The translations under genes were made by a program, and so were the position numbers. The notes under the pieces are model-generated. The model was not told where the DNA came from and made no database searches. It saw only the letters and a program-made list of their open reading frames with translations. Shown piece after piece: positions 29,365 through 63,707 of a stretch of DNA of 64,000 bases. The number at the start of each line of letters is the position of its first letter. Position 1 is the stretch's first letter. Source of the DNA: Escherichia coli (GTDB taxonomy: Bacteria > Pseudomonadota > Gammaproteobacteria > Enterobacterales > Enterobacteriaceae); the NCBI RefSeq assembly GCF_036507355.1, contig NZ_AP027877.1; one strand, written 5' to 3'.

Positions 29365-29370
29365 GTGTTC

Positions 29371-29392
29371 GCCGGATGACGCGTCATCCGGC
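29371..29392. terminator. 22-bp perfect palindrome (REP-like), bidirectional terminator between the dehydrogenase gene and osmC
   Basis: gccggatgacg|cgtcatccggc between convergent genes. Confidence 0.5.
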
Positions 29393-44236: not shown

Positions 44237-45625
44237 ATGGCACTGCAAAATGAGAAAAATAGTCGTTATCTTTTACGCGACTGGAAACCAGAAAATCCGG
44301 CCTTCTGGGAAAATAAAGGAAAACATATTGCTCGAAGAAACCTCTGGATATCAGTCAGTTGTCTACTTCTTGCCTTCTGTGTCTGGATGCTATTTAGCGC
44401 AGTTACCGTTAATCTCAATAAAATCGGTTTTAATTTTACTACCGATCAACTCTTTTTATTAACCGCATTACCCTCCGTTTCTGGCGCATTATTGCGTGTT
44501 CCCTACTCCTTTATGGTACCTATATTCGGTGGACGCCGATGGACGGTTTTTAGTACTGCAATCCTGATTATTCCTTGCGTCTGGCTCGGAATTGCCGTGC
44601 AGAATCCGAATACTCCTTTTGGGATCTTTATCGTTATCGCTTTGCTATGCGGTTTTGCAGGTGCGAACTTTGCTTCGAGCATGGGCAATATCAGTTTCTT
44701 CTTTCCAAAAGCCAGGCAAGGGAGCGCTCTTGGGATTAATGGCGGATTAGGAAACTTAGGTGTAAGTGTGATGCAGCTGGTTGCACCGCTGGTCATTTTT
44801 GTACCCGTATTTGCCTTTCTCGGCGTCAATGGCGTCCCGCAGGCCGACGGTTCGGTGATGTCGCTGGCGAATGCCGCATGGATTTGGGTACCGCTACTGG
44901 CGATTGCCACGATCGCCGCCTGGTCAGGGATGAATGATATCGCCAGTTCACGCGCGTCAATTACCGACCAGCTCCCTGTCTTACAACGCCTGCATCTCTG
45001 GCTGCTGAGCCTGCTTTACCTTGCCACCTTCGGTTCGTTTATCGGTTTTTCTGCGGGTTTTGCCATGCTGGCAAAAACCCAGTTCCCGGATGTGAATATT
45101 CTGCGCCTGGCGTTCTTTGGCCCATTTATCGGTGCCATCGCGCGGTCGGTTGGTGGTGCTATTTCCGATAAATTCGGCGGCGTGCGGGTGACGTTGATCA
45201 ACTTTATTTTTATGGCGATTTTCAGCGCCCTGCTGTTCCTTACCTTACCGGGCACAGGCTCCGGTAATTTCATCGCCTTTTACGCCGTATTTATGGGGCT
45301 GTTTCTGACCGCGGGTCTGGGAAGTGGTTCTACTTTCCAGATGATCGCCGTCATCTTTCGCCAGATAACCATTTATCGGGTGAAGATGAAAGGCGGTAGT
45401 GATGAGCAAGCTCAGAGAGAAGCCGTCACCGAAACGGCGGCGGCTCTGGGCTTTATCTCAGCCATTGGCGCAGTGGGCGGCTTTTTTATTCCGCAGGCGT
45501 TTGGCATGTCGCTCAATATGACCGGCTCTCCGGTAGGCGCAATGAAAGTGTTTTTAATCTTCTACATCGTTTGTGTGCTACTGACCTGGCTGGTTTATGG
45601 TCGGCGGAAGTTCAGCCAAAAATAA
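44237..45625 (+). CDS. narU: nitrate/nitrite transporter (MFS, NarK family)
   Basis: 462-aa protein MALQNEKNSRYLLRDWKPENPAFWENKGK...; ORF-track start at 44177 is an upstream extension. Confidence 0.92.
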   Translation: MALQNEKNSRYLLRDWKPENPAFWENKGKHIARRNLWISVSCLLLAFCVWMLFSAVTVNLNKIGFNFTTDQLFLLTALPSVSGALLRVPYSFMVPIFGGRRWTVFSTAILIIPCVWLGIAVQNPNTPFGIFIVIALLCGFAGANFASSMGNISFFFPKARQGSALGINGGLGNLGVSVMQLVAPLVIFVPVFAFLGVNGVPQADGSVMSLANAAWIWVPLLAIATIAAWSGMNDIASSRASITDQLPVLQRLHLWLLSLLYLATFGSFIGFSAGFAMLAKTQFPDVNILRLAFFGPFIGAIARSVGGAISDKFGGVRVTLINFIFMAIFSALLFLTLPGTGSGNFIAFYAVFMGLFLTAGLGSGSTFQMIAVIFRQITIYRVKMKGGSDEQAQREAVTETAAALGFISAIGAVGGFFIPQAFGMSLNMTGSPVGAMKVFLIFYIVCVLLTWLVYGRRKFSQK

Positions 45626-45633
45626 GAGATCGA

Positions 45634-45680
45634 TGCCTGACACGTCTTATCAGGCTACAACCGTGTCGCATCCTACAAGG
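45634..45680. repeat. REP-like palindromic element in the narU-narZ intergenic region
   Basis: gatgcctgacacgtcttatcaggctaca...gcatcctaca resembles REP consensus (GCCTGATGCGACG...CGTCTTATCAGGCCTAC). Confidence 0.5.
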
Positions 45681-45719
45681 CATCAGATCCCAATTCATTC
45701 CTGGAGCAGGAGTTATGTC

Positions 45720-48700: not shown

Positions 48701-49460
48701 TCGCTTTCGCGATATTCAGGCGCAGCCGCGTAAAATTATCTCCAGCCCCACATGGTCCGGTCTGGAAAGCGATCACGTATCCTATAACGCGGGATACACC
48801 AACGTTCATGAGTTAATTCCGTGGCGCACGCTGTCGGGACGCCAGCAGCTCTATCAGGATCATCCGTGGATACGTGCTTTTGGTGAAAGCCTGGTGGCTT
48901 ATCGCCCGCCTATCGACACCCGTAGCGTCAGTGAGATGCGCCAGATCCCGCCAAACGGCTTCCCGGAAAAAGCACTTAACTTCCTGACGCCGCACCAGAA
49001 ATGGGGCATTCACTCAACCTACAGTGAAAACCTGCTAATGCTGACACTCTCTCGCGGTGGACCGATTGTCTGGATCAGCGAAACAGATGCCCGAGAATTG
49101 ACCATTGTCGATAACGACTGGGTGGAAGTGTTTAACGCCAACGGCGCGCTGACTGCCCGCGCGGTGGTCAGCCAACGTGTACCGCCGGGTATGACCATGA
49201 TGTATCACGCTCAGGAACGCATTATGAATATTCCTGGTTCGGAAGTAACTGGCATGCGCGGCGGTATTCATAACTCGGTCACCCGCGTTTGTCCGAAACC
49301 AACGCATATGATTGGCGGTTACGCACAGCTGGCCTGGGGCTTTAACTACTACGGCACCGTCGGCTCGAACCGCGACGAATTCATCATGATCCGCAAGATG
49401 AAGAACGTTAACTGGCTGGATGATGAAGGTCGCGATCAGGTACAGGAGGCGAAAAAATGA
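45720..49460 (+). CDS. narZ: respiratory nitrate reductase Z alpha subunit
   Basis: 1246-aa protein MSKLLDRFRYFKQKGETFADGHGQ...; Mo-bisMGD catalytic subunit; ORF-track start at 45597 is an extension. Confidence 0.95.
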   Translation: MSKLLDRFRYFKQKGETFADGHGQVMHSNRDWEDSYRQRWQFDKIVRSTHGVNCTGSCSWKIYVKNGLVTWEIQQTDYPRTRPDLPNHEPRGCPRGASYSWYLYSANRLKYPLIRKRLIELWREALKQHSDPVLAWASIMNDPQKCLSYKQVRGRGGFIRSNWQELNQLIAAANVWTIKTYGPDRVAGFSPIPAMSMVSYAAGTRYLSLLGGTCLSFYDWYCDLPPASPMTWGEQTDVPESADWYNSSYIIAWGSNVPQTRTPDAHFFTEVRYKGTKTIAITPDYSEVAKLCDQWLAPKQGTDSALAMAMGHVILKEFHLNNPSDYFINYCRRYSDMPMLVMLEPRDDGSYVPGRMIRASDLVDGLGESNNPQWKTVAVNTAGELVVPNGSIGFRWGEKGKWNLESIAAGKETELSLTLLGQHDAVAGVAFPYFGGIENPHFRSVKHNPVLVRQLPVKNLTLADGSTCPVVSVYDLVLANYGLDRGLEDENSAKDYAEIKPYTPAWGEQITGVPRQYIETIAREFADTAHKTHGRSMIILGAGVNHWYHMDMNYRGMINMLIFCGCVGQSGGGWAHYVGQEKLRPQTGWLPLAFALDWNRPPRQMNSTSFFYNHSSQWRYEKVSAQELLSPLADASKYSGHLIDFNVRAERMGWLPSAPQLGRNPLGIKAEADKAGLSPTEFTAQALKSGDLRMACEQPDSGSNHPRNLFVWRSNLLGSSGKGHEYMQKYLLGTESGIQGEELGASDGLKPEEVEWQTAAIEGKLDLLVTLDFRMSSTCLFSDIVLPTATWYEKDDMNTSDMHPFIHPLSAAVDPAWESRSDWEIYKGITKAFSQVCVGHLGKETDVVLQPLLHDSPAELSQPCEVLDWRKGECDLIPGKTAPNIVAVERDYPATYERFTSLGPLMDKLGNGGKGISWNTQDEIDFLGKLNYTKRDGPAQGRPLIDTAIDASEVILALAPETNGHVAVKAWQALGEITGREHTHLALHKEDEKIRFRDIQAQPRKIISSPTWSGLESDHVSYNAGYTNVHELIPWRTLSGRQQLYQDHPWIRAFGESLVAYRPPIDTRSVSEMRQIPPNGFPEKALNFLTPHQKWGIHSTYSENLLMLTLSRGGPIVWISETDARELTIVDNDWVEVFNANGALTARAVVSQRVPPGMTMMYHAQERIMNIPGSEVTGMRGGIHNSVTRVCPKPTHMIGGYAQLAWGFNYYGTVGSNRDEFIMIRKMKNVNWLDDEGRDQVQEAKK

Positions 49461-51001
49461 AAATCCGTTCGCAAGTCGGCATGGTGCTTAATCTCGATAA
49501 ATGTATCGGCTGCCATACCTGTTCGGTGACCTGTAAAAACGTCTGGACCGGACGCGAAGGCATGGAGTACGCATGGTTTAACAACGTCGAAACCAAACCG
49601 GGCATTGGTTATCCGAAAAACTGGGAAGATCAGGAAGAGTGGCAAGGCGGCTGGGTCCGCGATGTGAATGGCAAGATACGCCCGCGTCTGGGCAGCAAGA
49701 TGGGCGTAATAACCAAAATCTTCGCCAACCCGGTGGTACCGCAGATTGATGATTACTACGAACCTTTCACCTTCGACTACGAACATTTGCATAGCGCACC
49801 GGAAGGCAAACATATCCCTACTGCTCGCCCGCGTTCGCTGATTGACGGTAAGCGGATGGACAAAGTGATCTGGGGGCCAAACTGGGAAGAACTGCTGGGC
49901 GGCGAGTTTGAAAAACGTGCCCGCGACCGCAACTTCGAGGCCATGCAAAAGGAGATGTACGGGCAGTTTGAAAACACCTTCATGATGTACCTGCCGCGCC
50001 TGTGCGAACACTGCCTCAATCCCAGCTGCGTGGCGACCTGCCCAAGCGGCGCTATCTACAAACGCGAAGAAGACGGCATTGTGCTGATTGATCAGGATAA
50101 ATGCCGTGGCTGGCGTTTGTGCATTAGCGGTTGTCCGTACAAAAAAATCTACTTCAACTGGAAAAGCGGCAAGTCAGAAAAATGTATCTTCTGTTACCCA
50201 CGAATTGAGTCCGGTCAACCGACCGTGTGCTCAGAAACCTGCGTGGGTCGCATCCGGTATCTGGGCGTGCTGCTTTACGACGCCGACCGCATCGAGGAAG
50301 CGGCGAGCACCGAGCGCGAAGTTGACCTCTATGAACGCCAGTGCGAAGTGTTCCTCGATCCACACGATCCCTCAGTGATCGAGGAAGCCCTGAAACAAGG
50401 TATTCCACAAAATGTGATTGACGCTGCCCAGCGTTCGCCAGTCTACAAAATGGCGATGGACTGGAAACTGGCACTACCGTTGCACCCTGAATACCGCACC
50501 CTGCCGATGGTCTGGTACGTTCCTCCGCTGTCACCGATTCAGTCCTACGCAGATGCGGGCGGTTTGCCGAAAAGCGAAGGCGTGCTGCCCGCCATCGAAA
50601 GCCTGCGTATTCCGGTGCAATATCTCGCCAATATGTTGAGTGCCGGCGATACCGGTCCGGTACTGCGGGCGCTGAAACGGATGATGGCGATGCGCCACTA
50701 TATGCGTTCACAAACCGTGGAAGGCGTTACTGATACCCGTGCCATCGACGAAGTAGGCCTGAGCGTCGCCCAGGTCGAAGAAATGTATCGCTATCTCGCC
50801 ATTGCCAACTATGAAGATCGTTTTGTTATCCCGACCAGCCATCGGGAAATGGCGGGCGATGCCTTCGCAGAACGCAACGGCTGCGGTTTTACCTTTGGCG
50901 ACGGTTGCCACGGTTCGGACAGTAAATTCAACCTGTTCAACAGTAGCCGTATCGATGCCATCAACATCACCGAAGTGCGCGACAAAGCGGAGGGCGAATA
51001 A
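49457..51001 (+). CDS. narY: nitrate reductase Z beta subunit (Fe-S)
   Basis: 514-aa ORF with multiple Cys clusters (CIGCHTCSVTC, CEHCLNPSCVATCPSGA, etc.). Confidence 0.95.
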   Translation: MKIRSQVGMVLNLDKCIGCHTCSVTCKNVWTGREGMEYAWFNNVETKPGIGYPKNWEDQEEWQGGWVRDVNGKIRPRLGSKMGVITKIFANPVVPQIDDYYEPFTFDYEHLHSAPEGKHIPTARPRSLIDGKRMDKVIWGPNWEELLGGEFEKRARDRNFEAMQKEMYGQFENTFMMYLPRLCEHCLNPSCVATCPSGAIYKREEDGIVLIDQDKCRGWRLCISGCPYKKIYFNWKSGKSEKCIFCYPRIESGQPTVCSETCVGRIRYLGVLLYDADRIEEAASTEREVDLYERQCEVFLDPHDPSVIEEALKQGIPQNVIDAAQRSPVYKMAMDWKLALPLHPEYRTLPMVWYVPPLSPIQSYADAGGLPKSEGVLPAIESLRIPVQYLANMLSAGDTGPVLRALKRMMAMRHYMRSQTVEGVTDTRAIDEVGLSVAQVEEMYRYLAIANYEDRFVIPTSHREMAGDAFAERNGCGFTFGDGCHGSDSKFNLFNSSRIDAINITEVRDKAEGE

Positions 51002-51696
51002 TGCAGATCCTCAAAGTGATCGGCCTGTTGATGGAGTATCCGGACGAGCTGTTGTGGGAATGCAAGGAGGACGCGCTGGCGTTGATCCGCCGCGACGCGC
51101 CGATGCTTACGGATTTCACCCGCAACCTGCTTAACGCGCCGCTGCTGGATAAACAGGCCGAATGGTGCGAAGTGTTTGACCGCGGGCGCACCACGTCGCT
51201 GCTGCTGTTCGAACATGTTCATGCCGAGTCCCGCGATCGCGGCCAGGCAATGGTGGACCTGCTGGCGGAGTATGAAAAGGTCGGCCTGCAGCTGGATTGT
51301 CGGGAACTGCCCGATTATCTACCGCTGTATCTGGAGTATTTAAGCGTACTGCCTGACGATCAGGCGAAAGAAGGATTGCTCAATGTTGCGCCGATCCTCG
51401 CCCTGCTTGGCGGTCGCTTAAAACAACGCGAAGCTCCGTGGTATTCGTTGTTTGACGCCCTGCTGCATCTGGCGGGAAGCATACTTTCAAGTGACAGTGT
51501 CACAAAACAAGTGAATAGCGAGGAGCGCGATGACACCCGCCAGGCGCTGGATGCGGTGTGGGAAGAGGAACAGGTGAAGTTTATTGAAGATAACGCCACG
51601 GCGTGTGACAGCTCGCCGCTTAATCAATATCAGCGACGCTTTAGCCAGGATGTCGCGCCGCAATATGTCGACATCAGTGCGGGAGGTGGGAAATGA
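51001..51696 (+). CDS. narW: nitrate reductase Z assembly chaperone
   Basis: 231-aa ORF, NarJ/NarW family, overlaps narY stop. Confidence 0.9.
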
Positions 51697-52373
51697 TTCA
51701 GTATCTGAACGTCTTTTTTTACGATATCTACCCGTACATTTGTGCGACGGTGTTTTTCCTCGGCAGCTGGCTGCGCTACGACTACGGCCAGTACACCTGG
51801 CGCGCCTCCTCAAGTCAAATGCTCGATAAACGCGGGATGGTGATATGGTCGAATCTGTTCCATATTGGCATTTTGGGGATTTTCTTCGGGCACCTGTTCG
51901 GCATGTTAACGCCGCACTGGATGTACGCGTGGTTTTTGCCGGTGGCAGCGAAACAACTAATGGCGATGGTGCTCGGAGGCATTTGCGGTGTGTTGACGTT
52001 GATTGGTGGCGCAGGACTGCTGTGGCGCAGGCTGACAAATCAGCGCGTGCGTGCCACTTCCACTACGCCGGATATCATCATCATGAGCATTTTGCTGGTC
52101 CAGTGTCTGTTGGGGCTAAGCACCATACCGTTTTCAGCACAGTATCCTGATGGTAGCGAAATGATGAAGCTGGTGGGTTGGGCGCAAAGCATTGTCACTT
52201 TCCGTGGTGGATCGTCAGAGATGCTTAACGGTGTAGCGTTCGTCTTCCGCCTGCATCTGGTGTTGGGAATGACCATCTTCCTGCTCTTCCCGTTCACCCG
52301 ACTGGTGCATGTGTGGAGCGCCCCGTTTGAGTACTTTACTCGTCGGTATCAGATTGTGCGCTCGCGGCGATAA
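51693..52373 (+). CDS. narV: nitrate reductase Z gamma subunit (cytochrome b)
   Basis: 226-aa membrane ORF, NarI family. Confidence 0.9.
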
Positions 52374-52451
52374 TTTCACCCTGGCCGGATAGCCCTTCGC
52401 TCTCCGGCCACTTGCAGGCTATGATAGTTCTCCAGTCACAGGAGAACGTTA

Positions 52452-53345
52452 ATGAAACCGCAGGTTTACCACGTCGATGCTTTTACCTCTCAACCATTTC
52501 GCGGCAATTCTGCCGGTGTTGTTTTCCCCGCCGATAATCTTAGCGAAGCGCAAATGCAGCTTATCGCCCGCGAATTAGGTCATTCGGAAACTGCTTTTCT
52601 GCTGCACAGCGACGACAGCGATGTGCGCATCCGCTACTTTACGCCAACGGTTGAAGTTCCGATTTGTGGTCACGCGACAGTAGCTGCACACTATGTACGT
52701 GCGAAGGTGTTAGGTTTAGGAAATTGCACGGTCTGGCAAACATCGCTGGCAGGAAAACATCGCGTGACTATCGAAAAGCACCACGATGGTTATCGTATTT
52801 CGCTGGAACAAGGTACGCCGGGCTTTGAGCCACCGCTGGAGGGTGAAACACGTGCGGCGATTATCAACGCGCTTCATCTCACTGAGGACGATATTCTGCC
52901 AGGCTTGCCAATTCAGGTGGCAACAACAGGACACTCAAAAGTGATGATCCCGTTGAAACCAGAAGTGGATATCGACGCCCTTTCGCCTGATCTTGCTGCG
53001 CTGAGCGCTATCAGCAAACAGATTGGCTGCAATGGTTTCTTCCCGTTTCAGATCCGCCCTGGCAAAAACGAAACCGATGGTCGCATGTTCTCGCCTGCGA
53101 TTGGTATTGTGGAAGATCCGGTGACTGGCAATGCCAATGGCCCTATGGGTGCATGGTTGGTACATCACAACGTATTGCCCCACGATGGCAACGTGTTGCG
53201 TGTTAAAGGCCATCAGGGGCGCGCATTGGGGCGTGACGGCATGATTGAAGTGACGGTGACAATTCGTGATAACCAACCGGAAAAAGTCACCATTTCAGGC
53301 ACAGCGGTGATTTTGTTTCATGCCGAATGGGCAATTGAACTCTGA
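52452..53345 (+). CDS. yddE: PhzF-family isomerase YddE
   Basis: 297-aa ORF, PhzF-like (MKPQVYHVDAFTSQPFRGNSAGVVF...). Confidence 0.85.
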   Translation: MKPQVYHVDAFTSQPFRGNSAGVVFPADNLSEAQMQLIARELGHSETAFLLHSDDSDVRIRYFTPTVEVPICGHATVAAHYVRAKVLGLGNCTVWQTSLAGKHRVTIEKHHDGYRISLEQGTPGFEPPLEGETRAAIINALHLTEDDILPGLPIQVATTGHSKVMIPLKPEVDIDALSPDLAALSAISKQIGCNGFFPFQIRPGKNETDGRMFSPAIGIVEDPVTGNANGPMGAWLVHHNVLPHDGNVLRVKGHQGRALGRDGMIEVTVTIRDNQPEKVTISGTAVILFHAEWAIEL

Positions 53346-53351
53346 AACCGT

Positions 53352-53433
53352 TGTCTGATGCGCTTCGCCTGTCAGGTCTACAACCGGGCTAATGTATGCC
53401 GGATAAGGCGTTTACGCCGCATCCGGCAACCTG
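53352..53433. repeat. BIME: pair of REP elements between yddE and nhoA
   Basis: tgtctgatgcgcttcgcctgtcaggtctaca and gccggataaggcgtttacgccgcatccggca (classic REP palindromes) between convergent genes. Confidence 0.65.
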
Positions 53434-53440
53434 ACATAAA

Positions 53441-54286
53441 TTATTTTCCCGCCTCCGGGTGCGTATCAAACGCCGCCATCACCAGCGCTAACTCATCCAC
53501 GGTAAAGCCATGTTTCGCATCATCCACGCCCAGACCAAACTGTTCTTGCATCACGGCATATAACGACGCCACATCCGGTAGATTTCGCTGCTCCACCGCG
53601 TGCCCATTTTCATAATGGGTAAAATGAAAATTGGGCAGTGTCAGCTTGCCGCCGTCCGGTAAATGGCGGCACATCAGCAAATGATGGCGAAAATGCGACT
53701 GCGGCCAGTGCGCCGACCAGAAATTGCCCATCACATAATCGCTTTGTTGCTGCTCGCAGAGATCAAAACGGTACATCGACTGCCAGTGCTGATGATGATT
53801 AAACTGCAACACCCAATCATCACCCTCCTGCAACAACCGATACTCTCCGTGTGGCGTGGTCTGCACGAGATCGGGAACTAAACGAATCGGCGCGGTTAGC
53901 GTCTGCCCACCGAAACCGACATCAGCAATCCATTTTTCCTCTTCCAGTTCCACCAACAGCAAACGATGGGTGCGCGGCGGTAATGCTGGCGGATTTGATA
54001 ACACTACGCGCCCTAACAAGCTGCGAACGTTAAACCCCAGCTCGCGTAACACCCGCTCAAACACGCCATTCTGCTCAAAACAGTAACCGCCACGACGGGC
54101 TATCACCAGTTTCTCTTCCAGCGATTGATCATCAAGCTGTATTTCCCTCGGCAGCAAAACGTCAAGGTTTTCAAACGGAATGGTGCAATTGTGTTTCAGG
54201 TGCAATGCACGAAGCGTATCAATATTGACCGCAGCAGCTCCCGACCAGTTAATACGGGCAAAATAGTGATTCAGAATGGGCGTCAT
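53441..54286 (-). CDS. nhoA: N-hydroxyarylamine O-acetyltransferase
   Basis: 281-aa ORF; arylamine N-acetyltransferase catalytic Cys region RRGGYCFEQN. Confidence 0.9.
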   Translation of the reverse strand: MTPILNHYFARINWSGAAAVNIDTLRALHLKHNCTIPFENLDVLLPREIQLDDQSLEEKLVIARRGGYCFEQNGVFERVLRELGFNVRSLLGRVVLSNPPALPPRTHRLLLVELEEEKWIADVGFGGQTLTAPIRLVPDLVQTTPHGEYRLLQEGDDWVLQFNHHQHWQSMYRFDLCEQQQSDYVMGNFWSAHWPQSHFRHHLLMCRHLPDGGKLTLPNFHFTHYENGHAVEQRNLPDVASLYAVMQEQFGLGVDDAKHGFTVDELALVMAAFDTHPEAGK

Positions 54287-54458
54287 CAGGCGTTTCCCTT
54301 AGTGGTTTTCTCAACTTATAACCTGGAATAGACGCCGCACCGGCTATTTTGTGCGATCGCGGACATGCATCACGTTCGCAAATCGCCAATCCCGTTAATT
54401 TCGTTACTTATTGCGTTACGGACTACGCTTAAAAAAACCTTCTTCGCGAGGCGATACC

Positions 54459-55028
54459 ATGAGCCGATTCATCCCCATAGAATTACACCATGCCAGCCGT
54501 CTGTTAAATCATGGCCCAACTGTCTTGATCACCAGTTTCGATGAGCAATCCCAGCGGCGTAACATTATGGCTGCAGCCTGGTCAATGCCGGTGGAGTTTG
54601 AACCTCCACGCGTGGCGATTGTGGTAGATAAATCGACATGGACCAGGGAGTTGATTGAACATAACGGTAAATTTGGCATCGTTATCCCGGGCGTTGCAGC
54701 AACTAACTGGACGTGGGCGGTGGGAAGTGTGTCGGGGCGTGATGAAGATAAATTTAATTGCTATGGCATTCCGGTTGTGAGAGGCCCGGTATTTGGTTTG
54801 CCTCTGGTCGAGGAAAAATGTCTGGCGTGGATGGAGTGTCGATTGCTACCTGCGACTTCTGCGCAAGAAGAATACGACACGCTGTTTGGCGAAGTAGTAT
54901 CAGCAGCGGCAGACGCACGGGTATTTGTCGAAGGCCGCTGGCAGTTTGATGATGATAAGCTCAATACATTGCATCATTTAGGTGCTGGCACGTTTGTTAC
55001 TAGCGGCAAGCGTGTTACGGCGGGTTAA
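54459..55028 (+). CDS. yddH: flavin reductase-like protein YddH
   Basis: 189-aa protein MSRFIPIELHHASRLLNHGPTVLITS... Confidence 0.85.
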   Translation: MSRFIPIELHHASRLLNHGPTVLITSFDEQSQRRNIMAAAWSMPVEFEPPRVAIVVDKSTWTRELIEHNGKFGIVIPGVAATNWTWAVGSVSGRDEDKFNCYGIPVVRGPVFGLPLVEEKCLAWMECRLLPATSAQEEYDTLFGEVVSAAADARVFVEGRWQFDDDKLNTLHHLGAGTFVTSGKRVTAG

Positions 55029-55031
55029 GCA

Positions 55032-55259
55032 TTACATGCTGTAACCAGGTTTCTTTATCAAAGCCTCCATTTGGGGCGCGATTTCGGCATCCCAGATAGC
55101 TTGCCATGATTCTGGTTGAATCTGCTGTAGAGAAATGCTTATCGAGCTATCTTTACTGTTCAGATGGCGAATAATAACGTCGGTAATATCTGCAGCAAGT
55201 GCTGCTTTTTGTTGTTCGTCCAGTTCACGCGGAAAACATTTAATGTCGATGTGCGGCAT
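55032..55259 (-). CDS. pptA: tautomerase PptA (4-oxalocrotonate tautomerase family)
   Basis: 75-aa protein [33 protein letters not shown]... with catalytic Pro after initiator Met. Confidence 0.85.
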
Positions 55260-55626
55260 GATTGTGCTCCTTTTGAAAGATGTCAGTAAAATTAACACAC
55301 ATTGTGAATGTCGTGTGTCCGGTAATGCGTTTTTACGACAATAATGCCTGCTTGAAATTGTAGATATTTGCACTACACCCTTTTAAATAAAGCACCAACA
55401 AATCTTCAAATTGCAGGACATATTCTTCTGCCAATATACCATTAAGAAAACATCAAGTTCCCGGCTTGCCAATTTATTAACGCCCATTATAGACGCTGAA
55501 ACAAGCCACGGACAAAGAAGATGCCAAAATTACCGGCAATGCAGAAAAACTCAACGAACTGTTAGGTTAAATGGATAATTTTGAATTTTGGTTCAATATA
55601 GTGACACTATAAAATTACTTTGTATC

Positions 55627-55649
55627 GGGCAGGTGCCCTGCCCTTTTTT
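55627..55649 (+). terminator. intrinsic terminator-like hairpin in non-coding spacer
   Basis: gggcagg-tgc-cctgccc followed by tttttt. Confidence 0.5.
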
Positions 55650-55712
55650 AGTTAAAAAGGGCTGAAAGAAGAAATACGCATCATTCATGGAAAACTCGCC
55701 GCGATATGGTAA

Positions 55713-56015
55713 TTCGCGGCATGGCAATTAACTTGCCAGTCAGAGGATATTGTTGTCCGTTATGGTAGCGAAGATTTTGCCATCAAACTTTTTAATGCAA
55801 CATTGCCGGAAGCAGAGACGGTAGCAGCCAGAGTGAAACAAGAACTTAAACTGGCAGCTATCCCGCATCAGGCATCTGCTGTTAGTGCGTTCGTTACGGT
55901 TAGTCACGGGATTACCTGGTCTGCTCCCGCCAAAACGGCTGAACAAATTATTTCAGATGCCGACGCCGCGTTATACCGGGCGAAAGCAAGTGGGCGAAAT
56001 CGATGGGCTTTATAA
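55713..56015 (+). pseudogene. C-terminal fragment of a GGDEF-domain diguanylate cyclase (no start codon, N-terminus absent)
   Basis: open frame translating ...EDIVVRYGSEDFAIKLFNATLPEAETVAARVKQEL...DADAALYRAKASGRNRWAL: degenerate RYGGEEF-type motif and typical GGDEF C-terminal end, but only about 100 codons and no upstream ATG. Confidence 0.6.
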
Positions 56016-56078
56016 CTATTAGGGGACTGGCTAGATTACGTATCTTCGCTCTTAACAAGGACTGACGGCAGGGCAAGA

Positions 56079-56570
56079 TTACGAAAGCCCGCTCCCCGCA
56101 AGGACTGACGCCAGATAGTTTCTGTCCATGGCTGCTTTTCGCATCTTATGTCTTAACCCTGCCTTGAATACCTTATCATTCGTCAAAATATTAATAGCAA
56201 TGTGCCGTATCCCTGGAAATAATTCTGCTGCATTTCCTCTTCTTATTTTGCAGTCGTCTTCATTCATTACCACGTCCAGACGCCAGTGCAGCTTATTCTC
56301 CACGTGCCAGTGGTTTCGGATTGCTGTGGCGAACTTCTCTGCGGTTAAATCAGCAGAACTGATATAATATCTGACCGTCATTTCTGGCTCTTTCTTTTGT
56401 TCTGCTATTATGGACCGAAAGGAGACTGCCACGCATAATTTCTTCAGCCCTTTCCATTCAAACGTGAAATCAATAAGTTCATCAGGAACATCGCAAACAA
56501 TATGAAGACGGATTTCTTCTCTGCCGTGACTAAAATGCGAATTATTTAGTACAAAAAAAGCGGCGCACCT
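56079..56570 (-). pseudogene. ISAs1-family (H-repeat-associated) transposase, 3' remnant
   Basis: translation ...[78 protein letters not shown]... matches C-terminal part of YdcC/YhhI-type H-repeat proteins; upstream part missing (upper limit approximate). Confidence 0.7.
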
Positions 56571-56636
56571 TGTTCTTTCCCAGATTCCTAATATGGCAAC
56601 TTTAAGTTATCGCCGTCTATACTTATAGAAATTTCA

Positions 56637-57092
56637 TCAGGGGTGACATAAATAGAATTTTTTTTCATCCTCAATTGCCCATAACTGATTAATAAAAAAG
56701 TGTTTTTTATCATCTAATAACAAATCATCACATGTAGTAAAATTATTAATATCAAAAAAATCATCAGCACAATTAATTTTTAAATTTAAAAAATAAAGAA
56801 AAATATTATTGATTGATTTGAGTGTAAACCACTTGTCATTAACAAATTTATAGCCAGATGATTTTATAAAATAATAATTATCTCCTGGTATAAAGGCATA
56901 CATATCATTTAAGGTTATACTCAACAAAAAACTACGACCTGGTTTAATAGTATTCCAGCGTTCAGGATTCGTATTAATTTCAAAAGGACATGAACCACCT
57001 AAGTAGTCCAACGTGATATTCCCAGAGTTGATCCTGGATGGTTTTTTGCATATCGCATCATATTCATCTCCTTTTCCATCTTTTACTTTCAT
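56637..57092 (-). CDS. hypothetical protein, AT-rich; candidate immunity/accessory protein
   Basis: 151-aa ORF; start ATG overlaps stop of upstream ORF (ATGA); no recognisable domain. Confidence 0.4.
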   Translation of the reverse strand: MKVKDGKGDEYDAICKKPSRINSGNITLDYLGGSCPFEINTNPERWNTIKPGRSFLLSITLNDMYAFIPGDNYYFIKSSGYKFVNDKWFTLKSINNIFLYFLNLKINCADDFFDINNFTTCDDLLLDDKKHFFINQLWAIEDEKKFYLCHP

Positions 57093-57379
57093 AGGTAGAT
57101 AATATTTAGAAAAAAATACGTGGTAGAGCTATTGTTAGTAAAGGTTATGTTAGCAAAAATCCTGTTATTTTTTTTACTCATAGCTAATTGAGCATTGACA
57201 TCCGCTATATAATTTATATGATTACATTTTTTCTTACACTCATCATAATTTTCGATAGGATAAATTAATGGCCTTCCTTTGATATCTCTCTCAAGCCCAA
57301 ACCCGTATTTTTTTATTAAAACCATTTCATCCGCAGTCGATTGAAAGGAATAGAAAAATATAATATTTACGATTGTCAT
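57089..57379 (-). CDS. hypothetical small protein, candidate immunity protein for the upstream HExxH toxin
   Basis: 96-aa ORF directly downstream of the metallopeptidase-like gene; hydrophobic N-terminus; AT-rich. Confidence 0.35.
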   Translation of the reverse strand: MTIVNIIFFYSFQSTADEMVLIKKYGFGLERDIKGRPLIYPIENYDECKKKCNHINYIADVNAQLAMSKKNNRIFANITFTNNSSTTYFFLNIIYL

Positions 57380-57431
57380 TATTATGATTTTTTTATAGCT
57401 TGCAGCATTAATATATTTCTCGACTTATTAG

Positions 57432-58223
57432 TTAATGGAGAAGTGTTTTTTCTAATTCCGCTATTTTTTTCTTAACTGAATTGCTTAATATTTCATCATT
57501 AATCGAGTCTATCTCACTTTCAATTAATCTTATTTCAAAATATCTTTCTATGTTATATGCATTCTCAAATATTTGATCTTTTTGTTTAGAGATCAGTTTA
57601 GTTGCAATACGGATATGTTCGTCATATGAAACTTCATCCTCTTTGCACGTTGAATATTTATCAGTAGTTGTATAATCCTGTGACCACATACCACCTTTTT
57701 TATTATCCCCATAATACCACTGAATATGAGACATTTCATGACATAAAGTAGCAACATGAGAATCCTTTCCCGTTACTGGATTTTTTTTGCCATCTCTATA
57801 CTCAAATTTTGCGCCTATGTTAATTATATAGGGCATATCCTTACTTGGGCTGACGAATGCTGCAAATTCATTACAACCTGTATAATTTATAAAACTGCTC
57901 ATTGTTAAATCATTAGCTATAATCATTAATCTTCTCACGCCATCCATCATAAGAAATCTAGCATTCATGCGCCTACCTGTATTATGTCCATATTTTCTTA
58001 TATTAACTTCCTTATTTCCTTTAACACCAAAGATCTTACTGAAATAATATTCCTCCTGTGCTCCCCATCTCAAAAGATCATCTGCTCTTTTTATCAAAAC
58101 CAACTTTTGTGCCTTACGAGCCTTATCAATCATTATTTTAAAATGATCAGTTATTTTTTGCTCTTTCACACATTCTTCTGGCTCTGGCTTTGGTTGTCCA
58201 GAAGTTTGATTATTATCGTCCAT
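57432..58223 (-). CDS. HExxH zinc-metallopeptidase-like putative toxin (orphan effector module)
   Basis: ORF 57432..58280; likely start at Met20 (MDDNNQ..., 58223) with SD ggaagga upstream; motif ATLCHEMSHIQWYYGD (HExxH); very AT-rich; sits in T6SS cargo island. Confidence 0.55.
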   Translation of the reverse strand: MDDNNQTSGQPKPEPEECVKEQKITDHFKIMIDKARKAQKLVLIKRADDLLRWGAQEEYYFSKIFGVKGNKEVNIRKYGHNTGRRMNARFLMMDGVRRLMIIANDLTMSSFINYTGCNEFAAFVSPSKDMPYIINIGAKFEYRDGKKNPVTGKDSHVATLCHEMSHIQWYYGDNKKGGMWSQDYTTTDKYSTCKEDEVSYDEHIRIATKLISKQKDQIFENAYNIERYFEIRLIESEIDSINDEILSNSVKKKIAELEKTLLH

Positions 58224-58410
58224 AGTGTCCTTCCATTGAGAGAAAATCATCATTCGCAAATAGCAACTAAAAAGCAGCATTACTTGACCTTTCCCTGCAT
58301 AACAATATTTATAAAATAATACGTTTTATGATCTCACCTTGGGCTCCCAACAAGATAATTTCAGTTTTAAAGACTTTCACGAAAAAAATATAGAAATACC
58401 TCACCACCCT

Positions 58411-58701
58411 TCACTTACCAATTAATCTCACAGGAAATCCAACTTCCTTACCACAAATACAATCCCAAGTAACACCTCCCAAAATTTTTGATACTTTAGG
58501 CTGCAATGGCATTATTGACATTATAAATTTATCAAGTTCTTCGCTATATTTAATTCCCTTTATATTTCTTATTATTGATATTCTAGCAGTAAAGATAGCC
58601 GTCTCTCCATCTACACTAAAAGTGTAATTACAATTTTTTGTAATCTCATCAAATTCAACCGATAACAAATCAATATTATGGTTTGTAAACACTATGCCCA
58701 T
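58411..58701 (-). CDS. small protein, candidate cognate immunity protein
   Basis: 96-aa ORF whose start overlaps the 3' end of the effector gene by 26 nt; no signal peptide evident. Confidence 0.45.
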   Translation of the reverse strand: MGIVFTNHNIDLLSVEFDEITKNCNYTFSVDGETAIFTARISIIRNIKGIKYSEELDKFIMSIMPLQPKVSKILGGVTWDCICGKEVGFPVRLIGK

Positions 58702-60115
58702 TCCATACCTCCTTAAATTCCTGTTCAGTCATCAGATATCGACTCCCTTGATATGGATCATATATTATCACATTCCCAGCATCATCAACACCCTTAACAA
58801 GTACCCAATGCCCTACTTTACTTCCAGAATCCCACATCATTGCTCCCCATGAACCAGTATTACTGAGGGCATATAAACTAGATTCGCTCACTGCATTCCC
58901 TTCCCAGCCGACATCAAATTTATTAAGCTTGTTTGCCAGCGACGTCATAGATGTTAATTCTGTTCCAATTACATTTTGCGTGACAAAAATATACCTATCC
59001 CTAAGCAACATTTCCCCACAGGCCGCTCCACAGCCTGTTAAAGTCAATTGCTTTATTACATTTGAATCTAAAACCTCATCAAATACTGTCCAATTGCCAC
59101 CAGCACCACCTTCTAAAACTACCGGCTCTACAAATACTTTCCCAGAGATATTTTCTTCTGGTATTTTTGCGGGTATCATAAAGCCCCATAAAAAGCTGGC
59201 AAAATGCTCCAGAGCAATCTGATCACCATTATTTGCATCCATTATCATTTTTTTAAGTGCATCCCATGCTTGCCCATTTATCAATGAATCACTAATATTA
59301 AATAAAGCCTGTTCTTTTTCGTTTAAATTTATATTTGCCTGTTCACATAACCCATCTTCGCCTATCGGGCAAGCAACCGTTGCCGTTGCCGTATCTAACA
59401 GAGCATCGAATGTAACTAAGGCTAAATCCGCCACACCATGTAAAGTGGTGATTGCTCCATTCCCCATTTGAGTAAGTGTGTTCTCTACAAACCATTCTCT
59501 AATTTGAGATTTATCTCCTTCAATATCATTCCTGAGAGATTCTCTGATATTCTTTATTGAAAAAAACTCCCCCCATGATTGGTCAGGATCTTTTATTTGG
59601 AATAAATCATTTTTAACCTCAGGTGAAATATCTCCGTCAAAAATATTACCAACAGAGAGGAGATCCTTCAGAAGCAGTAAATCGTGTATTACTTCAGCAG
59701 TCCTTTCATAATTAAAAGTTCTATCAATGACAGAAATCATTGGTGATTTTATTTTGGTATATAATTTACCAAGGCAGTTATGGTTATTAATCCCAACAAC
59801 TGAACCATGATAAGCGACAGGTCTCCCCTCTATTGTTACAGTCGGACTTCCCGTTAAAATAACGCAGTCACCTGTTCCTTGAGATGTACCAGATATGACA
59901 CCTTTACCGGCATTACTTTGAGTTCCAGCAATCACTGAACCAACATTTAAAGCTCTGCATCCACGCGCCCATACCGTTGAACTGTACTGCCTTTCACTAT
60001 CTAAAGTCTGGTAACTGTCAAAAGGAACCTTGTCACCTCCTACTTCACATACATCTGGTGAAGAGCACACGACTTTAAATCTACATTCACCATCCCCGAT
60101 ATGATAGCTACCCAT
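58676..60115 (-). CDS. T6SS effector candidate: N-terminal PAAR-like (DUF4150-type) domain fused to C-terminal papain/C39-like cysteine peptidase domain
   Basis: 479-aa ORF; N-terminus contains SPDVC and GDCVILTGSPTVTIEGRPVAYHGS segments typical of PAAR-like domains; C-terminus has GCGAACGEML (candidate nucleophile Cys) and GHWVLVKGVDDAGNVIIYDPYQG (His/Asp), the order seen in Peptidase_C39-like/papain-fold domains. Confidence 0.6.
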   Translation of the reverse strand: MGSYHIGDGECRFKVVCSSPDVCEVGGDKVPFDSYQTLDSERQYSSTVWARGCRALNVGSVIAGTQSNAGKGVISGTSQGTGDCVILTGSPTVTIEGRPVAYHGSVVGINNHNCLGKLYTKIKSPMISVIDRTFNYERTAEVIHDLLLLKDLLSVGNIFDGDISPEVKNDLFQIKDPDQSWGEFFSIKNIRESLRNDIEGDKSQIREWFVENTLTQMGNGAITTLHGVADLALVTFDALLDTATATVACPIGEDGLCEQANINLNEKEQALFNISDSLINGQAWDALKKMIMDANNGDQIALEHFASFLWGFMIPAKIPEENISGKVFVEPVVLEGGAGGNWTVFDEVLDSNVIKQLTLTGCGAACGEMLLRDRYIFVTQNVIGTELTSMTSLANKLNKFDVGWEGNAVSESSLYALSNTGSWGAMMWDSGSKVGHWVLVKGVDDAGNVIIYDPYQGSRYLMTEQEFKEVWNGHSVYKP

Positions 60116-60698
60116 AATATTTTTTTCCTATACATTCAGGAATAATACAACTCAGCACTCCTTCTTTCATTCCAAAAAAATCAGGTATTGTCAATCTCCA
60201 GGTAAGGTATATTTCCTGTCGATTTAAATCGATAACCATTGTATCCGCAACAGGTAAGAACATATGAGATGTATTATGCTTGGTTTTTAATATAAGTACA
60301 GGTCGTATACCTGGCAATTTTGTCTTAACAACCTGTTCAAATTTAAAAAAACCTTCAAGAGTGATGTTTTCATCGCCAGAGAGAAACCCCGCGTATATCA
60401 TATCCGGATGAGCACTATTGTAGAACCTCTCATCAAAATCATCCGGCAAATAGGGATAGCGCTTTTCACGCCATACTTCATTGTAGGTTCCTGCATACTG
60501 GAGGCGACTTTTCCACCATCGAGATACAGGGCCAACGCCTTGAAAAAAGTCAGATTCCCCATTAAAAATGGTAGCGTTTTCTGACAAAGCAGAGCTGGTT
60601 ATTTGTGGGAGTTTATATTGACAACTTGTATTAAGTTGGGAAATATCAGGATAATATCCACAACCTACAGGGTTTGCTGAAAAAACCAATTTTCCCAT
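60108..60698 (-). CDS. hypothetical protein, possibly 5'-truncated adaptor (DUF2169-like) for the downstream PAAR-like effector
   Basis: 196-aa ORF between vgrG and the PAAR-like effector; frame stays open upstream of the annotated Met without a start; assignment by gene-order analogy only. Confidence 0.3.
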   Translation of the reverse strand: MGKLVFSANPVGCGYYPDISQLNTSCQYKLPQITSSALSENATIFNGESDFFQGVGPVSRWWKSRLQYAGTYNEVWREKRYPYLPDDFDERFYNSAHPDMIYAGFLSGDENITLEGFFKFEQVVKTKLPGIRPVLILKTKHNTSHMFLPVADTMVIDLNRQEIYLTWRLTIPDFFGMKEGVLSCIIPECIGKKYYG

Positions 60699-61517
60699 AC
60701 CATCTGGTTGCCAAATACCACCGTAAGCAAGCTCATAGCGTAGAGGAATATTAATAATTTTATCGTGAGATGCTGATCGTTCGCTACCACAATCTTCTGA
60801 TCATGACTGCCTTCCTTCTTACTCCCAACATTCACCGTCTGACCCACACCCACCGTAATTTTCTGGTTATTGGTTATGGTTTCCGTGTGGTCGTGTTTCA
60901 CCGTCGTCGTCCGGTCATTCAGCACCTCCGTATCCATGTTCTTCTGCGCATGGATATACACCTGCTCATTACTGGTGGCGTCTTCAAACCGCAGCTCGTT
61001 AAATCCGCTTCCTTTATAGGTTTTTGACCGGATGGTCATCTGCGTCTTCGTTCCCGGCAGGTCGCCCGGCGAACGGTTGTCCTCATGGTAGGTCCGCCCC
61101 ATGATTATCGGCTGGTCCGGGTCGCCGTTCAGAAAATCAACAATCACCTCCTGGCCCACCCGCGGTATCGCCAGGTTACCGAACCCCGGCCCCGCCCACG
61201 CCTGCGATACCCGCACCCAGCATGAACTCGCCTCCGTCATCCCGTGATAACGGTCCCAGTGGAACTTCACCCGTACCCGGCCATGTTCATCGCAGAAGAT
61301 TTCCTCTCCCGCAGGCCCGGTGACAATGGCACTCTGCGGCCCGTCCACCTTCGGTTTGCTTTGCAGCCGTGGACGCCACGTCCGGTCCGCCGGTATCACC
61401 TCTAACTGATTTCCCAGCGTGGTTCCTCTCCCTTGGCTGCCGTGCAGCGCCTGCGGCTGGTTTCCTGACAGAATGCTCTGTACCACCTGCCATTCACGGT
61501 TCAGCATCTTCTGCGGA
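60665..61517 (-). pseudogene. vgrG: vgrG (T6SS spike), distal part, downstream of IS insertion; 3' end abruptly AT-rich
   Basis: translation ...PQKMLNREWQVVQSILSGNQPQALHGSQGRGTTLGNQLEVIPADRTWRPRLQSKPKVDGPQSAIVTGPAGEEIFCDEHGRVRVKFHWDR... (gp5-like region); continues the reading frame of the proximal part across the insertion. Confidence 0.85.
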
Positions 61518-61560
61518 TGAGGTGTACTGGCAATAGCGGACACTACCATTTGTTCTTTTT

Positions 61561-62379
61561 TTAAGCAGCCATCTGATGATATTTTTCCCTGAAGGCTGCC
61601 GGGGAGATATTCCCCAGACGAGAGTGACGACGCTGACGATTGTAGAAAATCTCAATGTATTCCCGTATTACTGAGATGGCTTCATCCCGGTTATTAAAAC
61701 GATAGTGGCTCAGGCTCTCATTTTTCAGCGTTCCCCAGAAGCTTTCCATCGGAGCGTTGTCGTAACAGTTACCTTTACGCGACATTGATGTTTTCAGACC
61801 AAACTGCTCCTGTATGACCCGGTAATCGTATGCGCAGTACTGTGAACCTCGATCAGAGTGGTGGATTAGCCCGGCAGGTGGGCGCTGTCTCCTGAGCGCC
61901 ATAAACAGGGCTTTACCTGTCAGCTCTTTTGTCATGCGCTCTCCCATGGCGTAGCCGACAATTTCGCACGTATAAACATCTTTGATGCCAGCGAGGTACA
62001 ACCATCCCTCCTGTGTGGCAACATACGTCAGGTCCGCCACCCAGACCTGATTTGGTGCTGTAGGAGCGAACGTCTGGTTCAGCAGATTTGGCGCAACTGG
62101 CAGATTGTGGTTCGAGTTCGTAGTCGCTCTGAACTTGCGTTTCTGCTTACAGCGTAGCCTTAGCTCCTTACGAAGACGTGCCAGTCGGTCACGACCAACG
62201 ATGATGCCATTCTCTGCCAGCTCCGTCTGGAGCCGCCGGGTTCCATATGTTTCGCGAGTGCGGATATGTGCCACCTTAATCTCCAGTTTTAGCCGCTCAT
62301 CACTTTGTTTTCTGTCTGAGGGTTCATGCTGTACCCAGTTGTAATAACCGCTCCTGGATACACCAAATACCTGACACAT
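61561..62379 (-). CDS. IS3-family transposase OrfB (DDE integrase domain; expressed as OrfAB by -1 frameshift)
   Basis: 272-aa ORF with DDE-type region (...VWVADLTYV...HHSDRGSQY...CYDNAPMESFW...). Confidence 0.85.
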   Translation of the reverse strand: MCQVFGVSRSGYYNWVQHEPSDRKQSDERLKLEIKVAHIRTRETYGTRRLQTELAENGIIVGRDRLARLRKELRLRCKQKRKFRATTNSNHNLPVAPNLLNQTFAPTAPNQVWVADLTYVATQEGWLYLAGIKDVYTCEIVGYAMGERMTKELTGKALFMALRRQRPPAGLIHHSDRGSQYCAYDYRVIQEQFGLKTSMSRKGNCYDNAPMESFWGTLKNESLSHYRFNNRDEAISVIREYIEIFYNRQRRHSRLGNISPAAFREKYHQMAA

Positions 62380-62414
62380 CGCTTCAATGGGAAATTGTTG
62401 TCGCCATTGTTCGA

Positions 62415-62717
62415 TTAACGCGTATTTTTCAGCGACTCCTGTGCAAAATACGCTGTTGCTTTTTTTAATATATCTCGCTCAAGGCGAGCTTCATTTAACG
62501 CCTTACGCAGTTGCAGAATTTCAGATTCCAGTTCAGCCACCGTGCGGGAACCAGGAGTACCGAGCCCTTTTCTGGCGGCGGTAACCCATTGTCCTAAAGT
62601 GCCTTCAGGAAGAGATAATCGGGAAGCGCCTTCACTGATCGAAAGTTGATTTTCAAGAACCGTTCTGACAGCTTCGGCTTTGAACTCTTTAGAGTAACGT
62701 TGGGTTTTTCTGCTCAT
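62415..62717 (-). CDS. IS3-family transposase OrfA (HTH)
   Basis: 100-aa ORF MSRKTQRYSKEFKAEAVRTVLENQLSISEGASRLSLPEGTLGQW...; slippery heptamer at about 62449-62456 near its 3' end. Confidence 0.85.
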   Translation of the reverse strand: MSRKTQRYSKEFKAEAVRTVLENQLSISEGASRLSLPEGTLGQWVTAARKGLGTPGSRTVAELESEILQLRKALNEARLERDILKKATAYFAQESLKNTR

Positions 62718-62781
62718 TATTAGCTCCTTCTGATGCCATTCTATTTCAGGAAGGAGTGTCCGTTAAACTCAGGCTACCTCA

Positions 62782-63707
62782 GGATGCCCCGTCAGCGTAA
62801 ACCGCGTTCCCGGCCACAGCCTCGGCGAATTACTCTGCCCTGTGGCCTTTTCCGCATCACTGCGCAGGCTCTCCATCTGGTACAGCGTGAAATCCTTGCC
62901 GTGCTGCTCATCCTTGAACCTTCCCGGATAATCAAATATTTCATACTGCGCCAGCTGTCCGTTCAGGTTCTCACCCTGCTGCTCATACATCCCCGGCCAG
63001 TCCGGCACCTTAAACGTGTAATCCTGGCTCTGCACCGACGACGGGCGGACATGCGCCTCATAACGGAACATACTGAGACACTCCGTCTCCGCTCCTGCCG
63101 ATGTGTCCGGGTTAAACGGAAGCTCTCCCGCCTGTGACAGCCCCGCCACATCGTCGCACAGCGTCAGCTTCTGCTCCGGACTGTCCGCCGCAAACCGCTC
63201 AAAGAAGAAAATTCCCTCCTCCGCCCACAGCCGGGACAGAAACGCCAGGTCGCTTTCCCCGTACTGGACACAGAACTCCCGCGCCGGATGGTCCTCATAA
63301 AACAGCGGCGTCCACTCCGTGACGCCGTTCTCGTTCAGTAACGTGGCCGATATCGTCCGGATATCCTGCTGCTGGAAGATACGGAAGTTCTGCCGCAGCC
63401 CGCACCGCCATAACGGCGGCTCAATACGCAGGTGATAACGCATCTGCCAGCCGTTATTCTCCTGCATACCAAAACCCGCCACCACGCCGGTGACATAACG
63501 CTGCGCCACTGCGCCCTGCCAGATGGTCAGCGTCGCCTTCTTCTCCAGCAGCATCTCCGCCGTCTGCATAAAAGAGTCGCTGGCAACATCCACACTCATC
63601 ACAAACGGATATGACTGGCTCTGGATTAACCGGAAGCTCACCACTGCAAAGGTGTCCGGCTCCTGGCCGTCAACCTCCAGCGTAAAGCGAAGACCTTTTA
63701 ATGACAT
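62782..63707 (-). pseudogene. vgrG: vgrG (T6SS spike), proximal part (gp27-like), upstream of IS insertion
   Basis: MSLKGLRFTLEVDGQEPDTFAVVSFRLIQSQS... typical VgrG N-terminus; reading frame runs into the IS end (adds EVA then stop). Confidence 0.85.

Follow-up and report, generated by a model that had tools for sequence, protein, structure and literature searches.

A probable non-functional scar left by deletions at the pptA edge of a variable vgrG/rhs island in Escherichia coli

A stretch of 64,000 nucleotides of Escherichia coli DNA (hereafter the window) was analysed beyond pptA, where, as read from the sequence, a non-functional scar very probably forms the pptA edge of a variable vgrG/rhs island. 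Three separate deletions would account for it: one of 1926 bp, which removed most of a sulfatase gene, one of 740 bp, which shifted the frame of a cyclase gene, and one of 776 bp in the interior and 5' part of an ISAs1 insertion sequence (IS). The locus is a scar of an already known kind, the same fragments being annotated as pseudogenes by NCBI in related genomes; it contains no new kind of element and leaves no open question. It starts at 55491|55492 (junction J1), earlier than position 55713, where a first-pass annotation had begun it. The comparison set consisted of 5426 complete E. coli genomes, which were searched by megablast with 55380-56640 as the query, and blastn and the reading of junctions relied on the loci of OkiPb01695 (L001), PM06121 (L002), K-12 (L003) and PapRG-04-4 (L004). 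At the DNA level, annotated genes of complete E. coli genomes match the fragments with 92-98% identity. The coordinates of the fragments are given in Table 1.

Table 1. Features of the scar and its surroundings, in window positions, with the evidence on which each assignment is based.
Feature	Positions	Strand	Evidence
pptA (tautomerase), intact core gene bordering the scar	55032..55259	-	Pfam Tautomerase E=2e-15; aligns with annotated pptA of K-12, OkiPb01695 and PM06121
pptA/sulfatase intergenic region, ending at J1	55260..55491	.	blastn, window 55002-55492 = L002 4584-5074
Sulfatase 3' tail, ~121 nt (40 codons + stop)	55492..55612	+	blastn, window 55491-55738 = L002 7001-7249
Terminator-like hairpin and T-run, retained sulfatase terminator	55627..55653	+	consensus scan
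Native ATG and first 11 codons of the MASE5-GGDEF cyclase	55706..55738	+	base-by-base alignment with L002 7217-7249, annotated start of WP_021555416.1
Cyclase 3' end, 277 nt (91 codons + stop)	55739..56015	+	blastn, window 55730-56073 = L002 7981-8323, 92.4%
Solo ISAs1 right terminus, degenerate, lying in tandem with the actual IS end	56026..56068	.	direct repeat D1; L002 8290-8323 aligns
Internally deleted ISAs1-family element (H-repeat, ISEc1/ISEc5-like), 515 bp of the original 1291 bp, both termini kept	56069..56583	-	comparison with K-12, L003 7673-8963
ISAs1 transposase 3' end (ydcC homologue), 453 nt (150 codons + stop)	56079..56531	-	NCBIfam transpos_ISAs1; blastn to L002 8473-8935 and K-12 ydcC
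IS left terminal 52 nt, first 27 nt as in full-length copies, then a variant end	56532..56583	-	27/27 to L002 9712-9738; 35 nt to L001 10928-10961
AT-rich T6SS cargo beside the scar	56584..60764	-	98.8% identical to PapRG-04-4; Pfam; RefSeq annotation of the relative

Between 51 and 55.3 kb, the window follows the E. coli K-12 gene order narV-yddE-nhoA-yddH-pptA at 97-98% identity (blastn), and the best identity to complete genomes over the 15 kb of adjacent core was 98.6%. Beyond pptA comes a ydcC homologue, as in K-12 (narV-yddE-nhoA-yddH-pptA-ydcC...rhsE), which places the scar at the rhsE-equivalent site by synteny. In relatives with the same cargo, the far edge of the island is yncG-ansP, and rhsE of K-12 lies between yncG/yncH and pptA. 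The locus is the K-12 rhsE/H-rptE site in another allelic state, the K-12 occupants being rhsE-ydcD-yncI-ydcC, and the earlier proposal of an rhsE-equivalent locus agrees with the alignment and synteny of the K-12 pptA-ydcC-rhsE region. The equivalence is one of position: no Rhs core gene (YD-repeat protein) was found in 56.6-64.0 kb, the visible part of an island that runs past the end of the window. The GC content, ~0.52 as far as 54.5 kb, decreases to 0.39-0.47 in 55-56.5 kb and to 0.28-0.29 beyond 56.5 kb, and this drop confirms that the fragments lie, as had been proposed, at the boundary between core genes and an AT-rich island. A search for known RNA families gave no Rfam match in 54.5-58.5 kb, and a promoter scan found promoter-like sites at the locus to be not commoner than in shuffled controls. 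The scar is presumably not expressed.

PM06121 carries, in this order, pptA, a gene for an alkyl/aryl-sulfatase (658 aa), a gene for a MASE5-GGDEF protein (349 aa, WP_021555416.1), the ydcC ISAs1 transposase gene (378 aa), the T6SS cargo and yncG. The ancestral order read from such genomes is pptA, alkyl/aryl sulfatase, MASE5-GGDEF cyclase, ISAs1 and T6SS cargo, an arrangement which is intact in ~8% of complete E. coli genomes. According to Pfam, the intact sulfatase (L002 CDS 5146-7122) is composed of Lactamase_B, Alkyl_sulf_dimr and Alkyl_sulf_C, the intact cyclase has a MASE5 membrane sensor at residues 9-190 (E=5e-44) followed by a complete GGDEF domain at 191-346 with the motif GGEEF, and the intact transposase contains DDE_Tnp_1_assoc at 8-94 and DDE_Tnp_1 at 102-343. 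The full-length cyclase gene was recovered in 437 of the 5426 genomes, the copies being nearly all at least 99% identical to one another, and is an accessory gene in E. coli. We take WP_021555416.1 to be probably the accessory membrane-bound cyclase DgcY, a MASE5-GGDEF protein which is said to have been given this name by Povolotsky & Hengge in 2016 and to be treated also by Hengge et al. in the same year. Full-text literature searches on DgcY or MASE5 in E. coli returned nothing relevant and did not contain these two key papers, and the names of the protein clusters to which the MASE5-GGDEF protein belongs were generic only.

At J1, the 1926 bp corresponding to L002 5075-7000 are missing, with a 2-bp AG microhomology at the junction. 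The deletion begins 72 bp before the sulfatase start codon (L002 5146) and spares the last ~121 nt of the gene, in which a nonsense codon (TAT>TAA at 55568-55570) was noted on reading the sequence. The hairpin that follows at 55627-55643 (7-bp stem with 6 GC pairs, then TTTTTT) is a consensus match only.

The frame 55713-56015 (+) comprises 100 amino acids without the stop, has an in-frame stop directly upstream, and matches positions 70-161 of the 161 of Pfam GGDEF (PF00990; E=7.4e-19, 68.5 bits), which is the C-terminal 40% of a GGDEF domain. At J2 (~55735-55738), L002 7250-7989 (740 bp) is missing, with a GCCA microhomology, and cyclase codons 12-258 are lost. As 740 leaves a remainder of 2 on division by 3, the cyclase frame is shifted and the last 91 codons no longer share the frame of the start; the cyclase ATG at 55706 now opens a 20-codon ORF (55706-55768, stop at 55766-55768) with the product MVIRGMAINLPVRGYCCPLW. 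Compared with WP_021555416.1, the last 91 codons are 92.4% identical in DNA and the first 11 are present, whereas the sensor, the complete GGDEF domain and the GGEEF motif of the intact protein are all lacking: codons 1-11 are all that survives upstream of and within MASE5, the N-terminal half of GGDEF lies inside the 740-bp deletion, and the active-site motif reads RYGSEDF in the window and in OkiPb01695, as opposed to RYGGEEF in PM06121. No complete GGDEF domain, GG(D/E)EF motif, MASE5 or start in frame with the catalytic domain was thus found. The first-pass annotation had described a GGDEF fragment without start and sensor, and this holds for MASE5, for the deleted first half of GGDEF and for the absence of a usable start; it has to be corrected in that the ATG at 55706 has survived together with 11 codons. 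A 5' truncation of the cyclase gene was accordingly ruled out, the lesion being an internal deletion. A 70-aa ORF starting from TTG at 55803 remains and is translatable in principle. The cyclase itself could hardly be made any longer, with the sensor and the first catalytic half gone, the frame broken after codon 11 and the motif drifted to GSEDF.

The cyclase remnant differs from the intact allele by 9 non-synonymous and 6 synonymous codons, versus 30 non-synonymous and 78 synonymous differences in pptA, yddH, nhoA and yddE together (Fisher p=0.018). The remnant is under relaxed selection, as indicated by this excess of non-synonymous change and by the replacement of GGEEF by GSEDF, the nonsense codon of the sulfatase tail being cited as well.

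The transposase remnant matches positions 201-314 of the 314 of the NCBIfam model transpos_ISAs1 (NF033564) with E=1e-36 and 126.7 bits, against a cut-off of 70, and the translation of 56079-56600 (-) matches positions 139-200 of the 200 of Pfam DDE_Tnp_1. With these scores for GGDEF and ISAs1, far beyond chance, both fragments of the first-pass annotation are found where it had placed them, and the transposase is indeed without its N-terminal region, which accounts for 228 of the 378 codons. The right terminus of the IS, CAGGGCAAGATTACG..., begins at J3 (56068|56069) and is identical to the end of K-12 H-rptE. At J4 (56531|56532), L002 8936-9711 (776 bp) is missing, that is, the N-terminal 228 codons together with 92 bp of the 5' leader. 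The two termini of the IS agree at 9 of their first 11 positions and form an imperfect inverted repeat. No target-site duplication was detected, the IS flanks AACAAGGACTGACGG and ATTCCTAATATGGCA showing no direct repeat, as would be expected if the flanks had been rearranged later. Membership of the ISAs1 family is supported by homology to the family model and by the presence of both termini with their imperfect inverted repeats; a complete ORF of ~378 aa with DDE_Tnp_1_assoc and the full DDE domain is lacking, and so is the target-site duplication. The transposase could probably not be made, as its gene has lost the promoter-proximal leader, the start and 228 codons, and with them DDE_Tnp_1_assoc and most of DDE, and the 515-bp relic would thus be fixed in place with both ends still present. 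A 117-aa ORF from GTG at 56432 remains and is translatable in principle. Just outside the right end of the IS lies the direct repeat D1 (56029-56071 versus 56072-56114, 74% over 43 nt). In PM06121, the same solo relic of an IS end is also present behind the intact cyclase gene, which indicates that an ISAs1 end has been adjacent to the cyclase gene for a long time.

Among complete E. coli genomes, the site was found in five different junction configurations, in line with the old rearrangement point that had been proposed. The right terminus of the IS abuts the window equivalent of 56068 in the window and in OkiPb01695, lies 150 bp further in PM06121, and abuts 55559 in PapRG-04-4 and 55348 in K-12 and O145:H28 (at least 2347 genomes in all); in EPEC E2348/69, J1 is present, the IS is absent and another cargo begins at ~55589. 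K-12 H-rptE/ydcC (b1460, ISAs1 family, ISEc1- or ISEc5-like in RefSeq) occupies the same site beside pptA, in the same orientation and with the same right terminus, and is 98.3% identical in DNA to the relic over the retained 463 bp. However, the K-12 element is complete, at 1291 bp and with its 378-aa ORF intact, whereas 776 bp are missing from the interior of the window copy, whose left end is a variant; the K-12 right end abuts DNA upstream of pptA, and K-12 contains neither sulfatase nor cyclase remnants. OkiPb01695, the single genome with J2, resembles the window on the core side: its pseudogene ACZ5DF_RS08655, annotated in RefSeq as 'diguanylate cyclase domain-containing protein, incomplete, missing N-terminus', has the same J1, J2 and GSEDF, with 3 nucleotide differences in 277. 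Unlike the window, OkiPb01695 has kept ydcC in full length, and beyond it lie a group II intron and an RHS core gene in place of the window's cargo.

J4 with the same left flank was found in 218 of the 5426 genomes, including O145:H28 (100%) and PapRG-04-4. The ISAs1 pseudogenes of PapRG-04-4 (G6Z99_RS12530) and O145:H28 (e.g. ECRM12581_RS09695), described in RefSeq as 'ISAs1 family transposase, incomplete, missing N-terminus', share J4 and the left flank at up to 100% over 211 bp, and are followed by the same T6SS cargo as in the window (98.8% over 4.7 kb for PapRG-04-4). In contrast to the window, these genomes have no GGDEF remnant, their IS right ends lying at the 55559 and 55348 equivalents, respectively. 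J4 is consequently joined to three different pptA-side junctions, those of the window, of PapRG-04-4 and of O145:H28, so that recombination within the IS or later deletions are needed. J1, J2 and J4 occur together in none of the 5426 complete genomes.

A trivial origin of the truncations, in which sequencing or assembly errors would conceal genes that are intact in the real genome, was given practically no credence. The lesions are deletions of 740, 776 and 1926 bp and not single-base frameshifts, the same junctions recur in independently finished genomes (161, 1 and 218 of 5426 for J1, J2 and J4), and NCBI calls the fragments partial pseudogenes in genomes that share them; assembly error was rejected on account of this recurrence. 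Intact genes behind sequencing errors, or a lack of homology to ISAs1 and GGDEF, had been named beforehand as grounds against a scar; homology to both was detected, and the truncations are not sequencing errors. It could also be that the ISAs1 gene was cut by the insertion or replacement of the AT-rich island rather than by an internal deletion, in agreement with the end of megablast IS homology at 56531 in most genomes and with the only partial resemblance of the next 52 nt to the K-12 left end. However, 56531-56557 agrees at 27 of 27 positions with the left-terminal part of full-length copies, which in L002 is found 93 bp before the ydcC ATG, and it also matches L001. The sequence then extends as far as 56583, where it reads ...TTCTTTCCCAG, a variant form of ...GATCTTTCCCTG, the left end in K-12, and the drop in GC starts only after 56583. 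Moreover, 515 and 776 bp together give the 1291 bp of the K-12 element, which indicates that the IS was internally deleted and not cut by the island. With the left terminus present, a cut through the IS at the island boundary was judged very unlikely. What had been presented as truncations of two genes is therefore right in that both are incomplete; the lesions are internal deletions and not end truncations, the left terminus of the IS being preserved at 56532-56583.

The remnants might still have a role, the relic as a non-autonomous element mobilised in trans or as a homology arm for T6SS cassettes, or the truncated GGDEF or transposase peptides as regulators, which we consider unlikely, if less so than a cut by the island. 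Both IS ends are kept as an imperfect inverted repeat, and a genome contains a median of 4 ISAs1-homologous places. The identical J4 relic with the same cargo is found beside three pptA-side junctions, which fits recombination through the IS. In a MAFFT alignment, relic SNPs near J4 (56385 and 56487) are common to J4 carriers only, and at 56115 the relic groups with L001, L002 and the J4 carrier L004, unlike K-12 or L005; with just ~4 informative sites, these SNPs are too few to carry the argument. Against a residual role, the J4 relic occurs once per genome, at the pptA-side locus, in every genome listed, and is devoid of a target-site duplication. The GGDEF piece is without half of the catalytic domain and without the GG motif, and as it is common to only one other genome, there is no sign of selection for it. 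A non-functional scar produced by internal deletions thus remains the preferred reading, and no observation speaks against pseudogenes.

With regard to the way in which these deletions may have occurred, the microhomologies at the junctions (1-2 to 4-5 bp) are short enough to be due to chance; they may point to RecA-independent slippage or illegitimate recombination, possibly promoted by the IS in the case of the nested endpoints. The endpoints nested at one IS right end look like IS-adjacent deletions, and J1, J2 and J4, which are away from the IS ends, look like microhomology-mediated deletions. Tentatively, and with considerable doubt on our side, the site may be seen as a nested deletion series anchored at one ISAs1 right terminus, where the relic may serve mainly as a homology arm exchanging whole T6SS effector cassettes and where the DgcY-like cyclase would be repeatedly lost as a by-product of cassette traffic or under selection during it.

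For annotation, these results mean that the ORF fragments should be treated as pseudogenes and that the strain should not be counted as a carrier of the accessory diguanylate cyclase. The locus also provides a worked example of an IS-flanked hotspot that erodes adjacent accessory genes by successive small deletions, and shows that one and the same combination of T6SS cargo and IS relic can have different junctions on its core side.

Beside the scar, the T6SS cargo comprises small ORFs, an M35-like peptidase ORF, a truncated DUF2169 gene (Pfam DUF2169), a putative immunity gene (96 aa, 58411-58701) and a PAAR-like/C39 toxin gene (58676-60115; Pfam Tox-PAAR-like and Peptidase_C39), and the cargo visible in the island includes vgrG, DUF2169 and the PAAR-like toxin. 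The adjacent T6SS island is also decaying, with IS600 in vgrG, joined to it at 61518, and an 803-bp microhomology deletion; the number of IS600 copies would suit a Shigella-like or IS-rich lineage. NCBIfam gave no names to the cargo ORFs.

The ISAs1 right terminus was also found as a degenerate solo copy, in tandem with the true terminus of the internally deleted ISAs1 relic and immediately 3' of the stop codon of the diguanylate cyclase gene, and the same copy is present in PM06121, in which the cyclase and sulfatase genes are intact. This tandem arrangement suggests that ISAs1 has been active repeatedly at this spot, and also that the sulfatase-cyclase module was itself bounded by IS sequences. 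In PM06121, a second, solo ISAs1 left-end fragment was noticed between the PAAR gene and yncG. It shares the 'AAAAAAAGCAGCG...CTTTCCCTG' variant left end and sits beyond the T6SS island, on its yncG side; ISAs1 left-end sequences of like orientation thus flank the PM06121 cargo on both sides. In OkiPb01695, which carries a full-length ISAs1 copy, a group II intron with a frameshifted ltrA interrupts the left end of this copy about 17 nt past the AGTACAAAAAA motif.

Coordinates of the features described in the text (strand given where assigned).
Feature	Location	Strand	Size
Degenerate solo ISAs1 right terminus	window 56026-56068; PM06121 locus (L002) 8290-8323		43 nt (window)
Solo ISAs1 left-end fragment	PM06121 locus (L002) 15091-15151
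ISAs1 left end interrupted by group II intron	OkiPb01695 locus (L001) 10962-12900
Two small AT-rich ORFs	window 56637-57379	-	151 aa and 96 aa
Overlap of the two small ORFs	window 57089-57092
Apparent effector/immunity pair	window 58411-60115	-
Deletion junction	window, between 60764 and 60765		803 bp missing
vgrG, two parts	window 60665-61549 and 62769-63707
IS600	window 61518-62781		1264 bp
Core segment compared	window 40000-55340		15 kb
Insertion between ddpF and osmC	window 22583-29376		6.8 kb
yddL/yddK region	window 40353-42851		~2.5 kb

Within the cargo, the T6SS effector/immunity pair is apparently intact. The effector (479 aa) combines an N-terminal PAAR-like toxin domain with a C-terminal C39-like cysteine peptidase, and a 96-aa ORF overlaps the end of its gene; homologues in other strains are named 'cysteine peptidase family C39' and 'cysteine protease immunity protein Cpi1' in RefSeq. 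The two small ORFs adjoining the IS relic correspond to one hypothetical gene of 219 aa in PapRG-04-4 and to one of 113 aa in O145:H28, two relatives with the same IS deletion junction. The frameshift in this cargo gene differs from strain to strain.

Compared with PapRG-04-4, the window's DUF2169 gene has also lost its 5' part, and vgrG its 3' end, through a deletion whose junction shows a 7-bp microhomology (TTTTATC); this leaves both the adaptor gene and the spike gene of the T6SS broken. In addition, vgrG is cut in two by an IS600 element flanked by a 3-bp target duplication (GGA), with orfA (100 aa) and orfB (272 aa) on the minus strand. No IS600 insertion at this vgrG site was found among the 5426 complete E. 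coli genomes of the collection. The highest identity of the core segment to any of these genomes was only 98.6%, indicating that the lineage of the window falls outside them. Taken with the IS600 element, this low identity points to a possible origin in Shigella or in some other IS-rich Escherichia lineage.

Two differences from K-12 were also observed. The insertion between ddpF and osmC encodes a LysR regulator, CoA-transferase subunits A and B, a thiolase, a 3-hydroxyacyl-CoA dehydrogenase, a short-chain dehydrogenase and a 463-aa protein with no Pfam match, and looks like a cluster for short-chain ketone/hydroxy-acid utilisation. The yddL/yddK region aligns only in part with K-12, and is annotated in relatives as a full-length porin ('ompC: porin OmpC') and a leucine-rich repeat protein.
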